NCBI GenBank assembly: GCA_963804165.1 | Contig: CAWDPO010000033.1 | Location: 32,001 to 96,000 of the forward strand | Direction of reading: 5' to 3' | DNA: 64,000 nucleotides | Origin: an uncultured delta proteobacterium | GTDB taxonomy: Bacteria; Desulfobacterota; Binatia; UBA9968 | In this document: positions 6,216-32,832 of the stretch, in pieces | How positions within the stretch are numbered: position 1 is the first letter of the stretch | Layout of the letters: the number at the start of each line of letters is the position of its first letter | Translations under genes and position numbers: made by a program | Notes under the pieces: generated by a model | Seen by the model: the letters and a program-made list of their open reading frames with translations, nothing else | Database searches by the model: none | Told to the model about the DNA's origin: nothing

Positions 6216-8507
6216 CTACGCCTTCCCCGCCTCCTTCAACCCGCGCAGCACGTTCTCCGGGCTCAGCGGCAGTTTGTTGATGCGCACGCCGGTGGCGTTG
6301 AAGATGGCGTTGGCGATGGCGGCCATGGGCGGGACGCAGGCGATTTCACCGGCGCCTTTGGCGCCGTAGGGGCCGGAGCCGGGGTAGCCTTCAACCAAAG
6401 TCGTTTCGATGCGCGGCATCATGTTGATGGTCGGCATCAGAGTAATCGACGAACGATGGGTTCATCGTTCTGCCGTTCTGGTCGAAGACGACTTGCTCGC
6501 AGAGCGCCTGGCCGATGCTCATGGCGGCGGCGCCTTCGATCTGGCCTTCGGCGGCGGCTCGGTGGATCGGCTGGCCGATGTCGTGGACGGCGACGTATTT
6601 CAGGATCTTCACGTTGCCGGTGTCCGGACTCACTTCGACGATGCAGGCATGCGTAGTAAACGGCTGGGAACTGCCGTGGGCTTTTTCTTCGGCCATCAGT
6701 TCCAGGTTGTCGCAGTAACCGCGGCCGATGACTTCGCCGATGACGTTGTGCGCGTCGGTGGCGACGGTGGCGAGAGCCACCGCTCTTTGCCGGCGTGCCT
6801 TTGACCCGGATCTGCTTGTCGACGATCTCCAGATCCTCCGGGCTCGCTTCGAGTTTGCGCGCGGCCATTTTGAAAATCTGATTGCGCGCGTCGATGGCGG
6901 CGAGCCGGGATGCGCCGCCGGAAACCAGGATGCCCCGGCTGCCGACCGTGCCTGCGTCCCATGGGCTGGCGTCGGTGTCGACATTGACCACAGTGACATC
7001 GCTCACCGGTATGCCAAGCTCTTCGGCGACGATCATTGGAATACCGAAACCGGGGATGGTGCCCATGTCGATCTTGCCGATGTGCACTGTCACCGAGCCG
7101 TCTTCGTTCACTTTCACTATCGAGCCGCCGCCGGGGCCGGCGCTCTCGATCCATGAGCCGGTGGCGATGCCGATACCCTGGTTCTTTTCCAGCTTTACTT
7201 TGCCCCAGCCGATCTTTTCCTTGGCGATGCGGATCGTTTCACCGAGCGAAACATCGCGCAGCTTGGGCACGCCGACGATCTTGTCGCCGGCTTTAGGCAT
7301 GTTCTTAAGGCGGAATTCCGTCGGATCCATGCCGAGCTTGGCGGCGATGGAGTCCATGTGCGATTCAACGGCAAATGCCGCCTGCGGGCCGCCGGGGCCG
7401 CGCACCGGGCCGCAGACCTGTTTGTTGGTGTAAACGAAATAGCCGTCGATATGGCAGTTGGGCATCAAGTACCAGCCGCCGAGCATGTTGGTGCAGCGGC
7501 CGCCGGCCTGCACGCCGAAGCCGGAGTAGCCGCCGGCGTCGTAAAATACTTTGCCGGTGCGGGCGACGATGGTGCCGTCTTTTTTCACGCCGGTCTTGAT
7601 GTACATTTTTGCGCCGGCGCGGATCGTCGTCGAGATGGTTTCCTCGGCCTTGTCGAGGACGATCATCACCGGCCGCTTGGCTTTGATCGCCAACAGGCCG
7701 CAGATCGGCTCGACGGCGGCGCCCGAGGTGATGCCGCTGCCCTTGCCGCCGAAGCCGCCGCCCAGGCCGGCGGAGATCACGCGCACGTTGTTGAGGGACA
7801 GCCCGAGCGTCTTCGCCGTTTCTTGGCGCACCGGGAAAGGTGCCTGGGCGTTGGCCCAAACGGTGAGACGGCCGTTGGGCTCCATCTGCGCCGCGGCGAT
7901 GCGCGGCTCGAGATACTGCGGGTGGATCATCTTGGTTTCGTAAACTTCGTCGACGACGATATCCGCTTCGGCCATCGCCTTTTCGGCGTCGCCGACATGG
8001 ACGACCGCATGGCCGCAGATATTTTTAAGCCCTGCGTCCGCCGGAATAGTTTTCGGCAGCGGCATGTCTTCATGCAAGGTCGGCGCATCCGGCTTGGTCG
8101 CTTCTTCGGGATCGATGAGCCACCGGCAGCGGTTCGTAGACGACTTTGATTTTTTTGAGCGCCTGCTTGGCGATGGCTAGCGATTCTGCGGCGACGGCCG
8201 CGACCGGGTCGCCCATGAAGCGGACTTTATCGCGCGCGAGTATATAGCGATCGATATAGCTGCGGCCGTAACGCACGTCCGGAGCGTCGGCAGCGGTGAC
8301 CACGGCATGGACGCCGGGAACTTTTTTTGCTTCGCTGGTGTCGATGCTGACGATCTTCGCGTGGGCGTACTGGCTGCGCAGGATCACGCCGTGCAATTGG
8401 TCTTTGAGCATCAAGTCGATGCCGTAAACGCCTTTGCCGACGACGCGCTCGACGCCGCCCATGCGCGCCGGGCTGGAACCGATAATTTTGAGTTCAGCTT
8501 TTGCCAT
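6216..8507 (-). CDS. Xanthine dehydrogenase-family molybdopterin-binding (large) subunit; frameshifts near 8118, 6785 and 6441
   Basis: ILRSQYAHAKI, HPQYLEP, LGGGFGGK, CGPVRGPGGPQ, DAGTVGSR, GQIEG and GAKGAGE motifs, spread over ORFs 8070-8507, 6437-8077, 6391-6999 and 6216-6437. Confidence 0.88.
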
Positions 8508-8510
8508 GAC

Positions 8511-8987
8511 TCATGCCCTCCCTGCGATGCGATCGGCGGCGAGATGGATCGCGTCGACGATCTTGTTGTAACCCGTGCAGCGGCAAATGTTGCCGGAGAC
8601 CGCTTCTTCGATGTCTTCCGCCGTCGGTTTGGTGGTGCGGTCGAGCAGCGCTTTGACGGAAATAATGTAGCCCGGCGTGCAATAACCGCACTGCACCGCG
8701 CCGGTGTCGATGAACGCTTGCTGCACAGGATGCAGCTTATCGCCGTCGGCCAAGCCTTCGATCGTCGTGATCTCGGCGCCGATGGCGTCGGCGGCCATGG
8801 TCACGCAGGAGTTGATCGGCATGCCGTTGTAAATGATCGTGCAGGCGCCGCACTCGCCGGTGTTGCAGCAGAGCTTGCTGCCTTTCATTTCCAAGGTGTC
8901 GCGCAGGAATTCCAGCAGCGATGTCGACGCTTCCGCGCTGGCGCTCACGGCCTTGCCGTTGATTTTGGTGTTAATGGTGAGACTCAT
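8511..8987 (-). CDS. (2Fe-2S)-binding small subunit of the Mo-hydroxylase
   Basis: MSLTINTK start with an AGGAGGT RBS; CNTGECGAC...C and QCGYCTPG...NICRCTGY motifs. Confidence 0.9.
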   Translation of the reverse strand: MSLTINTKINGKAVSASAEASTSLLEFLRDTLEMKGSKLCCNTGECGACTIIYNGMPINSCVTMAADAIGAEITTIEGLADGDKLHPVQQAFIDTGAVQCGYCTPGYIISVKALLDRTTKPTAEDIEEAVSGNICRCTGYNKIVDAIHLAADRIAGRA

Positions 8988-9857
8988 TATGCTACCTCCT
9001 TGCCGGTGGCGGCTTTCCAGGTTTGTTCGCAGTCCGCGGCGGGTCAAAGCTTCGACGATCCAGCGGCGATTCTCCGCGCTGCTGCGCTGATCGCTGATCG
9101 GACTCGCTTCCGATGCAGCCAGGGCCGCGGCTTCTTTGAGCAGCGCCGATCTGAGCGGTTTGCCGCGCAGCAGCGCTTCGGTCTTCGGAGCACGGATCGG
9201 CGTCGGCGCGACTGCGCCCAAGCCGATGCGGACGTCTTGCATCTTGTTCTTTCCGGCGTCGGGCGTGATCAGACACGGCAACGCCCACCATGGCGATATC
9301 CATGGCGCCGCGCACCGCGTGTTTCAGATAGACGCTTTTGCTCCCCGCCGACGGATAGGGAATCTCGATTTCCGTCAATAGACCTTTCACGCCGGCACTG
9401 CTCTTCCCCGGGCCCTGAAAGAAGGACGTGAACGGTTCGGTCTTCTCACCGTCGGCAAAGACGAGCTTGCCTTTCGCTTCCAACACGAGCAGCGGCGCTA
9501 GGGTTTCGCCCGACGGCGAGCGCGGCAGATGTTGCCGCCGATGGTCGCCGTGTTGCGCACCTGTAGCGACGCGAACTGGTGGCACGATTCCCACAGCACC
9601 GGCAGCTTCTCGCGCACGAGAGCGCTGGTTTCGATCTCGCGGATCGTCGTCAACGCGCCGATGCGCAGGCTGGCGCCGTTTTCAGTGATGCCGGTCAGTC
9701 CGGGGAGCTTCTTTATATTGACCAGTGAGCCCGGCTCTTCCTTAAACTTTATATCCACCATCACATCCGTGCCGCCGGCGATGACCTTAGCTTCGGCGCC
9801 GTGTTGCGCGAGCACGGACAACGCTTCGCTCACCGTTTTGGGTTCGAAATAATCCAT
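8987..9857 (-). CDS. FAD-binding medium subunit of the Mo-hydroxylase; frameshifts near 9520, 9285 and 9030
   Basis: IAGGTDV, IGALTT, QVRNTATIGGNIC, IGLGAVAPTP and PISDQRSS motifs. The corrected frame ends at a TAA overlapping the small-subunit ATG. Confidence 0.85.
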
Positions 9858-10074
9858 AGTCCCTGCCTCTTGTTTGGATTTTTTGCCGCGTTGGAATTCG
9901 CTTCCGTCTTAGCCCAAGTCGCGTGACGATGGCAAGGGGTGCAGCGTTGTTCGCGAAAACTGCTCTGCTTGACGCCCGTCACAGGTTCATTGTACGAACA
10001 TCGAAGCAGTGTTTGCGCCGAGGAACACGCGCGGGGACGCCGTCTAGAAAAAACCACACGCGGAGGCCATAAGC

Positions 10075-11703
10075 ATGGACCAAGAGCTGATAACGATCGT
10101 GACTCCGACCGCGCGTCGAGCGGTCAAGCGAACCAAGCTCTCTTCCAGGAAATACGCGAGCTTGAATAACCGGCGGATTGGTCTGCTGGATAACAACAAA
10201 CCCAACGCCGACCGGTTTCTGGAATATGTGGGCGCGTTGCTGAAGGAACGGTACGAAGGCGTCGAGCTGATCGCCAGAAGAAAAATGACCCGCACCGGAG
10301 CGGATTGTCTGGAGGAGCTGATCGATCGGTGCGACGTCGTCATCAATGCGTTTGCCGATTGAGGCTCGTGCACGTCGTGGAGTGTCCACGACGCCGTCCA
10401 GCTGGAAGACGCGGGCGTTCCCACCGCCACGGTGGTCACGGATGAGTTCATGACCCTCGCCAAGACGGAATCCTCCACGCGCGGCTTGAGCGGGTTGCCG
10501 CTCGTCGAGGTTCCTCATCCAGTCGGTTCGGTTTCTCTCGACGTGTTGCGTGCGCTAGCGCAGTCGACCCTAGGTTCGGTCGTTGCTGCGTTGACTGCCG
10601 GTAACGTTCACACGAATTTGCCCCTGAACGAGGAAGTTGAGTGCGGTGTCGAGTGCCCGACGATTGAGGTGCCGGCGGATCCGGGTCTCATGTTTCAATA
10701 CTTCATCAACCGGGGTTGGTCGGATGGGCTACCGGTGCTGGCGCCGACGCAGGCTGCGGTCAATCAAATGATCGGCGGCAGCGGGTGGGAAAGGGATGCC
10801 GTGCTGGGGGTTATCCCTCCTCTCAATGGGATCGCTACCGTCGAGAGAGTCGCCGTCAACGCCGTTATGGCCGGCTGTCTGCCCGATTATTTGCCGTTGC
10901 TGATTGCCGCCGTCCATGGCGTCCTGCAGTCGGGCTTCAACCTCGACGGCGTGCAAACAACGACTGGCAACGTCGCTCCTCTGACGATCATCAACGGCCC
11001 GTGCCGAAATTCTCTGCAGATCAATTACGCCAGCAACGCGTTGGGACAGGGATGGCGCGCCAACTCGACCATCGGCAGAGCGCTACGGCTCGTGCTTTGC
11101 AATATCGGCGGCGCGACGCCGGGCATGTATGATAAATCGACTCTCGGTCAACCGGCCAAATACACTTTTTGCATCGCCGAAAACGAGGAGGAGAATCCCT
11201 GGGAGCCGTTGCATGTCGAACGTGGGTCTGCACGGGACACGGACGCCGTCAGTGTTTTCGGCTGCTCGGGCGTGAATAGCGCCGTCGATATGGCAAGTCA
11301 GACCGCAAAGGGGCTTCTCAAAACGTTCGCCCTCACCATGATCGGTGGATTCACCGCCGGCGTGACCTCGACCGAGACGCTACTGGTTATTTGTCCCGAG
11401 CACGCGGCGATTTTGTCGGCTGGCGGATACTCCAAAGCGGACATTCGCAACGAGCTGTTCAATTTGGCGCGGGTGCCGCACGAAAAAATCTCCGACGAGA
11501 ATCTACAACTGCTGGCCAATAGACGACCGCGTTGGTTTCCGGCCCATCGTTCCGAAATCCCCGTGATAGACCGGCCCGAAGACCTCTGGATCGTCGTTGC
11601 CGGAGGCAAGGGGGCCAAGTCAGCTTATATCCCCGGTCGCACCGGCACCCATCTGCAAACGACAGGCGTGGAAAATCATGCGACGGTGAGTTGCCGTTGT
11701 TAA
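10075..11703 (+). CDS. Probable UGSC-motif selenoprotein (Sec at TGA 10360-10362) fused to a DGLPV..PT-type domain, 542 aa
   Basis: ORFs 10075-10362 and 10432-11703 are in frame. Read-through gives VINAFAD-U-GSCTSWSVHD. GGAGG RBS upstream, SECIS-like hairpin directly after the TGA, and C-terminal SCRC. Confidence 0.85.
10373..10393 (+). promoter_or_regulatory. Bacterial SECIS-like stem-loop
   Basis: CGTCGTGGA-GTG-TCCACGACG: a perfect 9-bp stem with a G/U-containing apical loop about 19 nt after the in-frame UGA. Confidence 0.75.
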
Positions 11704-11707
11704 AAGC

Positions 11708-12727
11708 ATGAGAGACGGAAACGGAGCAGGTATGCTTATGCGTCGTTCGATTGATTGTTTTCTGGCTGGAACGTTGGTGCTGTGCTTAATGGCCGGCTCC
11801 GCCGCAGCGCAGAGCAAATCCATCATTGTTGGGGAAGGCGTTCGCGGCGCCATGTTTTTGCCGGCTTATATCGCCGAGGACAAGGGTTTTTTTAAGAGAA
11901 AAGAACTTGATTCCAAGATCGTAACCTTCAGCCGCAGCAACGACATCAATGCGCTGGTCTCGGGCGACATTCAGTTCGACCAAACCTCACCGGATAAGGT
12001 CATCCACAGCGCTCTCGGCGGCTTCCCTGTTAAAATGGTCATGGCCACCACCAGCGGACTGAATCTCGCCCTAGTGGTACACCCATCGATTAAGTCGGCA
12101 TCGGATCTAAAAGGGAAGTCGGTTGCGATCACCAGCTTTTCCGGAATGCCGTACACCGGCCTTCTTCTCTGCTTGAAGGAACTCGGCATGACCAAGGAGC
12201 AGGTGGTACCGCTCAACATCGGCGGCAAGGCAGCTCGTTTCGAAACTCTGCTCAACGGCAAAGTGGCCGCCGCGATTCTCGATCCGCCTTACACGACCAT
12301 GGCTGCCAAGGAAGGATTCAAACTGCTGGTCGATCTCACGCCTCTCGAAGTGCCCTATCTCCGAAATGTCGTTGCGGTGTCCGAGAGATCTCTGCGCGAG
12401 GATCAACGCACGGTCGCGAAGTTTGTCGAAGCTCTCGCGGAAGGCATGCAGTTCTATCGTAACAAAGCGAACAAAGAAGAAAACCTGAGGATCCTGGCCA
12501 AGTATCTTCGCGTTCCAATGGACAAGAATCGCGCGATGATCGAAGAGGGATACGAGACTTATAGGGAGATGCTTCTCAGCAAACCGTACGCCGATCCCAA
12601 GGCCATGAAGATTCTCGTGGACGTAATTGCCGAATCGAACCCGAAGGTGAAAAATTTGAACCTGGCCACTCTCATCGATTCTTCTTTCGTCGATCGAATG
12701 GATCGGCAAGGGATTTTCGGCAAATAG
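11708..12727 (+). CDS. ABC substrate-binding protein, SsuA/NMT1-like
   Basis: Signal peptide ending SAAAQ; YIAEDKGFFK, ALVSGDIQF, DLKGKSVAI. Confidence 0.85.
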   Translation: MRDGNGAGMLMRRSIDCFLAGTLVLCLMAGSAAAQSKSIIVGEGVRGAMFLPAYIAEDKGFFKRKELDSKIVTFSRSNDINALVSGDIQFDQTSPDKVIHSALGGFPVKMVMATTSGLNLALVVHPSIKSASDLKGKSVAITSFSGMPYTGLLLCLKELGMTKEQVVPLNIGGKAARFETLLNGKVAAAILDPPYTTMAAKEGFKLLVDLTPLEVPYLRNVVAVSERSLREDQRTVAKFVEALAEGMQFYRNKANKEENLRILAKYLRVPMDKNRAMIEEGYETYREMLLSKPYADPKAMKILVDVIAESNPKVKNLNLATLIDSSFVDRMDRQGIFGK

Positions 12728-29017: not shown

Positions 29018-29106
29018 AATCGTGTTCGTGACTCGTGCTCGTGAGCGGGTGCGCATGAGTGCGACCAAGCGAAAAGCGCAGCGCTCGCGCGAAACGGAGA
29101 GATAAG

Positions 29107-30542
29107 ATGCCGACAACTTCATCGCTAGTGTACAAAGATCTGCGCGGCTACCTCGATGCGGCCGGCAGACTCGGTGAATTGCGCAAAGTTGACGGCGCGG
29201 ACTGGGATTTGGAGATTGGCGCGATTACCGAAGTGGCGGCGCGGGCGGCTAATCCCAAAGTGGTTTTGTTCGATAACATCAAAGATTACCCCAAAGGATT
29301 TCGCGTCGTGACCAATCCGGTCTGTTCGCCGCCGACGACGGCGTTGGCTTTTGGTCTCGATCCGAAGCTCGCCGGCCTCGATATCATTCGCGCTTGGAAG
29401 GAAAAACTCGGCAGTCAGAAGCCGCTCAAACCGGCGCAGGTTTCGCTGGGCCCGATTACGGAAAATGTCGACAGTGGTGACAAAGTGGATTTGCTCAAAT
29501 TTCCGACGCCGCGTTGGCACGCGGATGATGGCGGTCGCTATATCGGCACGGGCTGCATGGTGATCATGGAAGACCCTGACGAAAAGTGGACGAACGTCGG
29601 CACGTATCGTGTTTGCGTGCATGATAAGAATACACTCGGTATCTGGATTTCTCCCGGCAAACACGGCCGGCTCATTCGTGAAAAATATTGGGCGCAAGGA
29701 AAACCTTGTCCGGTCGTGATCAGCTTCGGTCAGGATCCGATTCTCGCCAAAGTGGCCAGTTGGTACGAAGCCTGGGGCGTGTCGGAGTTGGAAATCGCCG
29801 GTTGGCTGTTCGGCGAGCCGGTCAAAGTTATTCGCGGCGAGCAAACCGGCTTGGCGATTCCCGCAACATCAGAGTTGGCGGTCGAAGGCTTTATTGTGCC
29901 GCCGAGTGAAGACAGCCGCGCGGAAGGGCCATTTGGCGAATGGACTGGCTATTATGCTTCGGGCACTCGCAACGAACCCGTAGTGAAAGTCAAAAACGTT
30001 TTTTATCGAAACGACCCGATCATATTCGGCATGCCGCCTGGTATCTCCGGCAAGTCGGTGCCGCTCAGCGCCGCGAATGTCTGGCTTGCGCTGGAGAAAG
30101 CGGGCGTGACCGACGTGCAAGGCGTGTGGGAGTACTGACGCGCTATATCACGGTTATCTCGATCAAGCAGAAATACGGCGGGCATGTGAAGCGCGCGGCG
30201 ATGGCGATGCTCGGCTCAACTTACGGGTATCACCGGCGCTTCGTCATCATCGTCGACGACGATGTCGATCCTTCGAATATCGATGACGTGCTGTGGGCGC
30301 TGGCGACGCGCTGTGACCCCGCGACGGCGATCAACGTGATCAACGAAGCCTGGAGCACGCCGCTCGACCCGCGCATCACGCCGGACGCGCGCGCGGCGCG
30401 CAACTTTACCAATTCGGTTGCGATCATCAACGCGTGCCAGCCGTACCATTGGAAAGACCAGTACGCTAAGACTTGCTACTTCCCGGAGGAGACGCGCAAG
30501 AAGACGTACGACAAGTGGAAAGATGTACTAAGGTTGGAGTGA
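29107..30542 (+). CDS. UbiD-family decarboxylase (frameshift near 30135)
   Basis: GADWDLEIG, NVGTYRV, EGPFGEWTGYY; continues TRYITVISIKQKYGGH...STPLDP in the frame of 29940. Confidence 0.87.
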
Positions 30543-31865: not shown

Positions 31866-32832
31866 GGCAGGAAGCGTTGTTCTCGTTGTCACCCTCGCAA
31901 TGTGCGGAGCGGTCGCCGAGGCGCAGCAGTCGCGAAAGCTTCCCACCATCGGGATGCTCTACCCCGACTCGAAGCCTGGGGTTTGTCCCGACGGATTCGT
32001 ACAAGGAATGCGGGAACTAGGCTATGTGGATGGGCAGAACATCGTCATCAAATTCCACTCCGGTGAGTCGAAGCCCGAGCGGTTCCGGGAGGTCGCTGCC
32101 GATGTAGTCCGAAATGCGCCCGATGTGATCTGGACGCACGGAATCGCCACTCTTCTCGCGGCTAAACAGGCGACCACGACGATTCCCATCGTCGCTGGAG
32201 TTTCCCGCGATCTGGTTGAACAAGGGATTGTGTCCAGTTTAGCGCGTCCTGGCGGCAACATCACCGGGATGGAGTTGCGGGACCTAGAGATCATCGGAAA
32301 ACGGCTGGAGATCCAAAAGGAAACGGTACCCAAGGCCGCCCGCGTGGCGGTGCTAATTGATACCAACGATCCTAGCCACGCCAGTATCCTAAAAAAAATC
32401 GAGCCGGAAGCCCACGCATTGAACGTACGTCTTCAGCGCGTGGAGGCGAACTCTGATAAGGCCTTGGACAAGGCATTCTCAACCATGATGCAAGGCGGCG
32501 CCGGCGCGCTTTTAATCCCGGAAAATGCCATGTTTTCGGCAAACCGACAACGCATCGCTGAGCTGGCGATCAGCAAGCGACTGCCAGCCGCAGGCGGTGG
32601 TTCGCATTTTGCCGACGCCGGAAGCTTGCTGTCTTACGGCGCCAACGTTGGCGACCTGTGCCGGCGCTCCGCTACTATTGTGGACAAGATCCTGAAAGGC
32701 AGAAAGCCGGCAGATCTGCCGTTGGAACGGGCCGAGAAGTTCGAGCTCGTCGTCAATTTGAAAACGGCAAGGCAAATCGGCGTAACGATTCCGCCGACTG
32801 TACTGGCGCGGGCGGATCGAGTCATTAGATGA
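31774..32832 (+). CDS. ABC substrate-binding protein (ABC_sub_bind / putative Trp-Tyr binding type)
   Basis: LGYVDGQNI, SLARPGGNITG, GSLLSYG, KILKGRKPADLP, LARADRVIR. Confidence 0.85.
   Translation: MEQQNMNVQFQVRWLDSISRNRKSRIQNLKSAGSVVLVVTLAMCGAVAEAQQSRKLPTIGMLYPDSKPGVCPDGFVQGMRELGYVDGQNIVIKFHSGESKPERFREVAADVVRNAPDVIWTHGIATLLAAKQATTTIPIVAGVSRDLVEQGIVSSLARPGGNITGMELRDLEIIGKRLEIQKETVPKAARVAVLIDTNDPSHASILKKIEPEAHALNVRLQRVEANSDKALDKAFSTMMQGGAGALLIPENAMFSANRQRIAELAISKRLPAAGGGSHFADAGSLLSYGANVGDLCRRSATIVDKILKGRKPADLPLERAEKFELVVNLKTARQIGVTIPPTVLARADRVIR

Follow-up and report, generated by a model that had tools for sequence, protein, structure and literature searches.

A predicted UGSC-family selenoprotein fused to an enzyme-like partner domain in an uncultured member of the Binatia

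Does the TGA codon that parts two neighbouring open reading frames (ORFs) of an uncultured delta proteobacterium end a gene, or is it read as selenocysteine (Sec, U) in the middle of one? The ORFs in question lie on the forward strand of a 64,000-nucleotide stretch, here called the window, of a draft genome placed in the Binatia (Desulfobacterota; UBA9968): positions 32,001 to 96,000 of contig CAWDPO010000033.1, NCBI GenBank assembly GCA_963804165.1, renumbered from 1. Our answer is that they belong to a single gene, which from its sequence is predicted to encode a selenoprotein of the UGSC family. It is a further member of a known family and not a new system. The UGSC domain is fused here to a domain of about 350 amino acids (aa); in most genomes that domain is encoded by a separate gene directly beside the UGSC gene. 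An initial annotation of the window, made from the letters alone, had proposed a UGSC selenoprotein masked by its TGA, fused to a second domain and serving, as a thiol/selenol oxidoreductase, the aromatic pathway encoded nearby. How much of this holds, and what might the two domains do together?

Reading frame, recoded codon and hairpin

Under translation table 11 the two ORFs are 10075-10362 (95 aa) and 10432-11703 (423 aa), and they share one frame. When TGA is read as U, 10075-11703 on the plus strand yields a product of 542 residues in which a single codon is recoded, that of U96 (10360-10362), in the setting A-D-U-G-S-C-T (the longer stretch being ...FAD-U-GSC-TSWSVHD...). The initial annotation had given this frame, its single TGA and the peptide D-U-G-S-C-T correctly. 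The coding sequence comprises the UGSC domain, a linker and the partner domain; it is preceded by a GGAGG ribosome-binding site at 10062-10066, by direct reading of the sequence 8 nucleotides (nt) ahead of the ATG, and it ends in a TAA stop at 11701-11703. An alternative genetic code in which TGA is never a stop was considered and ruled out: TGA terminates 16 of the 34 long ORFs of the 64-kb window and is a normal stop there.

The UGSC domain spans residues 7-174 (10093-10596, plus strand) and is predicted to form a flavodoxin/Rossmann-like alpha/beta sandwich. The Pfam profile UGSC (PF24696) scores 165 bits (curated cut-off 25; E 2.3e-48) over profile positions 1-171 of 172, so that the match is unbroken across the TGA, and the NCBIfam model NF041046, 'UGSC family (seleno)protein', reaches 140.3 bits (curated cut-off 125). 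What do relatives have in the column of the TGA? An exhaustive profile-free search, followed by alignment, gave 15 full-length fusions with a UGSC-type N-terminal domain; 12 of these have Cys in the Sec column, the remaining three have Ile, Ser and Ile, and none of the 15 has Trp or Arg, which is the comparison that the initial annotation had put forward as a check. At 78 loci of other phyla there are 76 partner-adjacent UGSC domains, 74 of them alignable, and in 72 of the 74 the Sec column is TGA; the two others have Cys (Natrialba asiatica) and Ser. The decoding of the UGA at 10360-10362 as U96 is thus proposed for a column that holds Cys or TGA in relatives. Cys99 (10369-10371, plus strand), the second residue of U-x-x-C, is invariant in our alignment A4, and its column is Cys in 70 of the same 74 domains. 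Within the lineage, 38 of 41 related genomes have a match (the tally counts the unpublished genome G005 too), and among the matches listed none that spans residue 96 is without an in-frame TGA. The genome that contains the window has four UGSC genes, every one with a TGA: the window copy, a second fusion on contig C11 that reads H-U-S-T-C, and two stand-alone genes on contig C17. The profile scores, the in-frame TGA and the hairpin that follows it bear out the proposal of a masked UGSC selenoprotein.

That hairpin lies at 10373-10393 (plus strand), 10 nt downstream of the TGA, and has a perfect 9-bp stem around a GUG loop, CGUCGUGGA-GUG-UCCACGACG. Bacterial selenocysteine insertion sequence (SECIS) elements carry their apical loop 16-37 nt from the UGA, with a G in the loop; the window hairpin, whose loop begins 22 nt past the U of UGA, fits this rule. 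Perfect 9-bp hairpins with loops of 3-8 nt occur eight times in the window, a density at which about 0.004 would be expected to start within a given 30-nt span. Is the stem kept for the protein or for the RNA? Across 28 distinct homologous stretches the stem codons are ACG in 27, and TCG, AGT, CAC and GAC in all 28, whereas Gly and Asp residues that are conserved to the same degree but lie beyond the stem use two to four codons (Gly at +1 uses four; Asp at -9 is GAC in 16 and GAT in 12). A peptide motif served to choose the 28 stretches, so that the choice constrains their amino acids and leaves their codons free; L039/G005 was left out. As the stem is invariant in this set, it offers no covariation. 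Four metagenome runs (X1-X4) contributed thirteen listed contig pieces in which the match is confined to about 10354-10395 and the flanks are unlike on both sides. The hairpin is under nucleotide-level constraint, and the element made up of TGA and hairpin is common, at the nucleotide level, to many different environmental UGSC genes. The perfect hairpin at SECIS distance, one of the features first noticed in the window, is confirmed, with its synonymous sites fixed in the 28 stretches.

The partner domain and its pairing with UGSC

The partner domain occupies residues of about 196-535 (10660-11679, plus strand). It is enzyme-like and lies outside the Pfam and NCBIfam families: residues 185-542 match none at E up to 1, and a search of the PDB by sequence gave a sole match, by chance, at E 0.48. 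Relatives are plentiful, with 4892 representatives at E<=1e-3, 1225 of them at E<=1e-30, and with at least 609 places confirmed (of 610 candidates) in one-per-species genomes. The taxa, as named in the records, are Binatia, Rokubacteria/Methylomirabilota, Chloroflexota, Beta-, Gamma- and Alphaproteobacteria, Actinomycetota, Acidobacteriota, Nitrospirales, Poribacteria, one Bacillaceae isolate and one haloarchaeon. Conserved residues are found in DGLP..PT (217-225, within SDGLPVLAPT at residues 216-225 of the product), NAVMAGC, NGP (307-309), IGRA (333-336), FCxAENE and P441/H443. The most conserved Cys of the domain is Cys268 in NAVMAGC (10876-10878, plus strand), present in 20 of 20 sequences of alignment A1 and in at least 90% of those in A2 and A3. 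Cys366 in FCIAENE (11170-11172, plus strand) is nearly invariant (18 of 20 in A1, where the other two have Val; at least 90% in A2 and A3).

How regular is the fusion? A frame of 540-546 aa with one TGA and 61-63% identity is found in G004, G014, G021, G007, G002 and G010; in G001 a contig end truncates it, and G003 and G018 have it in split form. The C-terminal fusion of some 370 aa noted at first therefore stands, as a domain of about 350 aa whose frame is found in these six sister genomes, but no significance of its last residues is supported. The product ends in SCRC, a tail missing from all nine other fusions examined and lying in a region with a predicted local distance difference test (pLDDT) below 50 in the AlphaFold2 (AF2) model; we have dropped it as a redox motif.

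All four UGSC genes of this genome are fused to a partner domain or adjoin one, each stand-alone gene on C17 being followed by a separate partner-domain homologue. Farther afield, the 78 loci hold 90 partner matches, and 76 of these have a UGSC domain on the same strand within 1.5 kb (50 upstream, 26 downstream). Counted per locus, UGSC and partner are paired in 66 of the 78, in many phyla, in both gene orders, fused or separate. The 12 loci without UGSC are made up of six with shortened partner variants, four on short contigs or at a contig edge, and two with full flanks that still have no UGSC. Strict single-ORF fusions with exactly one TGA amount to 12 pairs, one of them in Robertmurraya sp. 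2P01SA, and reversed fusions, partner then UGSC and cut at the TGA, are seen in P0142, P0182, P0189 and P0247. AhpC/TSA redoxin domains, too, are found joined to the partner domain, with CxxC in P0264 and CxxT in P0269; the sources label these proteins 'peroxiredoxin' or 'redoxin domain-containing protein'.

Some variants may be mentioned in their own right. The shortened partner domain (profile positions 1-283 only), found at L072, L074, L081, L085, L097 and L114, is mostly from Candidatus Poribacteria and has no UGSC domain within 6 kb. Tandem partner-partner proteins of 709-741 aa occur (P0163, P0204, P0217, P0242 and P0263), and a short Chloroflexota contig (L104) carries three partner genes in a row and no UGSC gene. 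Two carriers are cultured: the haloarchaeon Natrialba asiatica DSM 12278 (L111), which has a Cys-type UGSC gene (GDCGSCTSW) beside a partner gene, and the Bacillaceae isolate Robertmurraya sp. 2P01SA (L122), for which a one-ORF Sec-containing fusion is predicted.

What folds do the two modules adopt? The AF2 model of the whole protein has a pLDDT of 94.2 and a predicted template modelling score (pTM) of 0.94, and that of the partner domain alone a pLDDT of 93.2. The UGSC domain (residues 28-180) is modelled as an alpha/beta sandwich of three layers, and the model resembles many flavodoxin/Rossmann-like families (Z 9-11); its 50 best fold-match rows contain no thioredoxin-fold entry, though absence from that list does not exclude the fold, and the UGSC profile finds nothing below E 0.1 among PDB sequences. 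In the model U96 sits between a strand (88-94) and a helix (97-112), and redox-active CxxC motifs are typically found at such a passage from strand to helix start. For the partner model none of 48161 PDB chains reaches Z>=5, the best being Z 4.2, and the best Foldseek match has E 1.1e-3 with a template modelling score (TM) of 0.22. Foldseek with the whole model gave weak mixed rows only, and the ESM Atlas gave unnamed clusters plus one automatic 'thioredoxin family' label, its named clusters yielding no usable match. The best of the weak partner matches is class I (Fe-S) fumarate hydratase (7xky_A, Z 4.2, root-mean-square deviation 5.3 over 191 residues); Foldseek too points to fumarate hydratase and hydro-lyases (6mso_A, E 1.1e-3; TM 0.22-0.28, identity 4-10%). 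Unlike class I fumarate hydratase, the partner domain has no three-Cys cluster motif, and with Z below 5 a kinship with the Fe-S hydro-lyases is not supported.

None of this makes the fusion new. UGSC proteins were reported in 2007 as selenoproteins without known function, and reviews of 2022 and 2026, in the sections available, still give the family without one; the accessible part of the literature under the family names (UGSC, PF24696, NF041046) yielded no functional study. A 2008 paper (Zhang and Gladyshev, PMC2398784) describes UGSC as a major family of the Global Ocean Sampling (GOS) data, names a 'UGSC/Unknown_1' fusion and proposes a thioredoxin-like fold. In its Dataset S1 the GOS reads headed '#UGSC-containing' show, as here, a UGSC motif and then GW[TS]DGLP[IV]VPPT, AVNGVMAGCRPEYMP and AENE. 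We equate 'Unknown_1' with the C-terminal domain because the partner motifs stand behind the UGSC motif in those reads. The fusion type, then, has been in the literature since 2008, and nothing essential differs here. Unlike the published UGSC/Unknown_1 copies, the window copy comes from a soil-type lineage, and its nearest named relatives are metagenome-assembled genomes of Candidatus Binatia.

Selenocysteine insertion and a proposed mechanism

Does the organism have the means to insert Sec? The initial annotation had named selA, selB, selC and selD as the genes to look for. Contig C16 groups selA (610 bits), selB (357 bits, positions 2-346) and selD (385 bits), with selA and selD above their cut-offs. 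The selD gene carries one in-frame TGA, so that SelD would itself be a selenoprotein. A tRNA-Sec with anticodon TCA is found on C24 at 76 bits, above the cut-off. The genome thus has selA, selD and tRNA-Sec; selB is present too, but its frame is interrupted in the draft.

The account that we favour, with a confidence somewhat above even, is that this UGSC-family selenoprotein gene encodes a two-module selenol/thiol-dependent enzyme in which UGSC acts as a relay. The hairpin would serve as the SECIS element, to which SelB would bind together with Sec-tRNA. The C-terminal domain would handle the substrate, with its invariant Cys268 and its conserved Arg335, Glu369, Asn330 and Cys366, and the UGSC module, with U96-x-x-C99 at the start of a helix, would be a built-in selenol/thiol redox relay. 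The relay would alternate between the selenol/thiol and the selenenylsulfide forms, reducing or resolving a Cys-based intermediate on the C-terminal domain, and would in turn be re-reduced by a cellular thiol system. The proposal is made because a redoxin can be swapped for UGSC, because U-x-x-C lies at a helix start, and because Cys268 is invariant. As in the fusions with AhpC/TSA, where the same partner domain stands behind a redoxin with CxxC (P0264; CxxT in P0269), UGSC may fill the role of a dithiol reductant; the substitution of one for the other suggests as much by analogy. The pTM of the two-domain model suggests that the domains may be packed in a fixed arrangement. Of the thiol/selenol oxidoreductase proposed initially, the redox chemistry is the best inference that the sequence allows, and the service to an aromatic pathway, discussed below, is not upheld.

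Several observations weigh against this account. The 66-nt stretch that was folded is not stabler than its shuffles (z -0.87; 41 of the 200 fold equally well or better), an Rfam scan of 10000-11800 gave no family, its sole row being a chance miRNA at E 7.5, and among the run contigs compared none of this organism itself spans the TGA. The selB frame is broken into ORFs of 423 aa and 177 aa, with more of its C-terminal part in a third frame (G000:C16:140279-144367, L001, beyond the window, with selD adjoining), and Sec insertion in this organism depends on that break being an assembly error. Sister genomes have selB intact (18 of them, with frames of 637-668 aa; the intact-selB tally of 21 of 25 also counts G005). 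We read the break as an assembly error, an assumption made because other genes of the draft also look frameshifted. The nearness of U96 and C99 to Cys268 is likewise assumed by the relay proposal. Finally, three of the 15 full-length fusions have lost both UGSC redox residues (their Sec column reads I, S and I) and retain Cys268, so that the relay would be dispensable in some members; these three count against the relay as a universal rule, and equally against the GrdB-like and metal-site readings considered below.

Broken genes are also seen in the window. On the minus strand, molybdenum-hydroxylase genes lie in pieces over 6437-9857, with MoCoBD domains at 6437-8077, FAD_binding_5 at 9498-9857 breaking off at position 117 of its 170-position profile, and a number of overlapping ORFs in the space between; the UbiD gene of 29059-30138 is without its C-terminal domain. 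The fragmented molybdenum-hydroxylase genes suggest indel errors in the draft.

Might the selenol act on the substrate itself? The family resembles GrdB and PrdB (TIGR01917, TIGR01918, PF07355) in its U-x-x-C, in a weak, repeated similarity around the Sec, and in having a second protein partner; GrdE and PrdA carry a pyruvoyl group. By such a scheme Sec96 would attack a substrate held by the C-terminal domain, with reductive cleavage of a C-N, C-O or C-S bond, Cys99 would form the selenenylsulfide, and an outside thioredoxin-type system would reduce it, so that UGSC would be catalytic and not a relay. Twenty of 30 UGSC domains weakly match TIGR01917 (best E 0.0021) at model positions 332-402, within which the Sec of GrdB presumably falls, seven of the 30 match TIGR01918, and the almost complete preference for Sec (72, against 1 with Cys) would fit a nucleophile. 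A table in the GOS paper lists the same U-x-x-C motif for PrdB (PMC2398784). The scores, however, are far under the cut-offs (15.7 bits against 602.2 for TIGR01917, 11.6 against 65.45 for TIGR01918), none of the 30 domains matches Pfam GRDB (PF07355), and the 30 sequences are mutually related, so the 20 matches are not independent. Moreover, unlike that of GrdB and PrdB, the partner resembles no detected known family, redoxin domains can stand in for UGSC before it, and some fusions are without both redox residues; we hold the GrdB-like scheme to be rather unlikely. Less likely again is that U96, C99, Cys268 and Cys366 bind a metal or an iron-sulfur centre at the domain interface, making the protein a metalloenzyme with a selenium ligand. 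Each side does offer two conserved Cys positions, and the fold matches of the partner, weak as they are, recur for Fe-S hydro-lyases only, namely the class I fumarate hydratase already cited (Z 4.2; Foldseek E 1.1e-3) and L-serine dehydratase (Z 2.7-2.9), but these matches are within the noise range of the search tool, Cys366 is Val in two of 20 sequences, the UGSC motif is gone in three of 15 fusions, and one redoxin fusion has CxxT only.

Two further readings concern the gene as a whole. One would make the TGA a true stop or a lesion, with products of 95 aa and 423 aa (the latter from the GTG at 10432), or with the gene dead through the broken selB. Gene callers split all close relatives in this way (the top 120 listed are all cut at the TGA, at 322-447 aa and 63-80% query coverage), and selB is interrupted here; the continuity of the UGSC profile across the TGA (positions 1-171 of 172), the retention of TGA and hairpin in every paralogue and orthologue, and the frameshifts in other draft genes, which point to assembly errors, make it very improbable. 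The other reading makes the protein a redox helper reserved for neighbouring aromatic enzymes, a cupin dioxygenase, UbiD and Rieske oxygenases, which is close to what the initial annotation had in mind. It is true that the gene heads a same-strand run with cupin (12883), UbiD-like (14057, 29059) and Rieske/LigXa-like (15690, 19414) genes. The orthologues in G004, G014 and G021 (61-63% identity), however, precede an NMT1-like gene and then rhamnose-synthesis (rml-type) sugar genes, and no cupin, UbiD or Rieske gene was found beside these three. Paralogous loci lie amid Amidohydro_2, thiamine pyrophosphate (TPP)-enzyme and binding-protein genes, and no Rieske, UbiD or cupin cluster is among the 18 most recurrent annotated neighbour families of the 78 loci. 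A dedicated aromatic helper is thus a quite improbable reading.

Gene neighbourhood and what the pairing means

What does accompany the pair? Four nt past the stop, at 11708-12727 on the plus strand, is a gene for an NMT1/THI5-like solute-binding protein (PF09084, E 1.9e-21). A gene of the same family is found downstream of the UGSC-partner unit at eight of the nine loci examined within the genus, and Amidohydro_2 genes are found upstream at six of the nine. Across the 78 loci the commonest neighbours are TctC (11), luciferase-like monooxygenase (10), CoA-transferase III (7) and enoyl-CoA hydratase (7). A search of 599 neighbour ORFs at these loci for a third conserved gene family found none in more than 11 loci, which, with the orthologues that have no cupin, UbiD or Rieske neighbours, speaks against the role in the aromatic pathway assigned initially. 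Taken across phyla, the neighbours hint loosely at the catabolism of carboxylic acids or acyl-CoA, and do not single out aromatic-ring enzymes.

Some features of the surroundings are recorded here for their own sake. The window from 11708 to 36319 (plus strand) is unusually dense in solute-binding-protein genes, at least 11 in number (NMT1, SBP_bac_1/8/11, ABC_sub_bind), interleaved with a cupin gene, two UbiD-like genes, two Rieske/LigXa-like genes and one GFO/IDH/MocA gene. At G000:C17:354000-386000 (L055, L056) two UGSC-plus-partner pairs stand 13 kb apart amid Amidohydro_2, TPP-enzyme and NMT1-like genes, and the block of TPP enzyme, Amidohydro_2, UGSC-partner and two NMT1 genes recurs in G018 (L061).

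If UGSC and its partner are viewed across all these genomes, a broader picture may be sketched, though we hold it only tentatively and think it more doubtful than the relay. The pair might be a widespread two-component selenoenzyme with a catalytic fold that has no solved relative, in which Sec would be directly catalytic, as a GrdB-like nucleophile or as the ligand of an interface metal, and whose substrates, in bacteria of soil and water, would be small carboxylic-acid metabolites.

What does the locus add to the UGSC family? The domain once listed as 'Unknown_1' regularly accompanies UGSC in the genomes of many phyla. It accepts a redoxin instead of UGSC, and it is confidently modelled, yet unlike any solved structure. 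As a rule gene callers truncate UGSC-partner genes at the TGA, as the uniformly short top 120 relatives listed attest. Together with the pairing, the redoxin swap and the confident model, the presence of Sec and Cys forms in the cultured carriers Robertmurraya sp. 2P01SA and Natrialba asiatica DSM 12278 makes the function of the family experimentally approachable.

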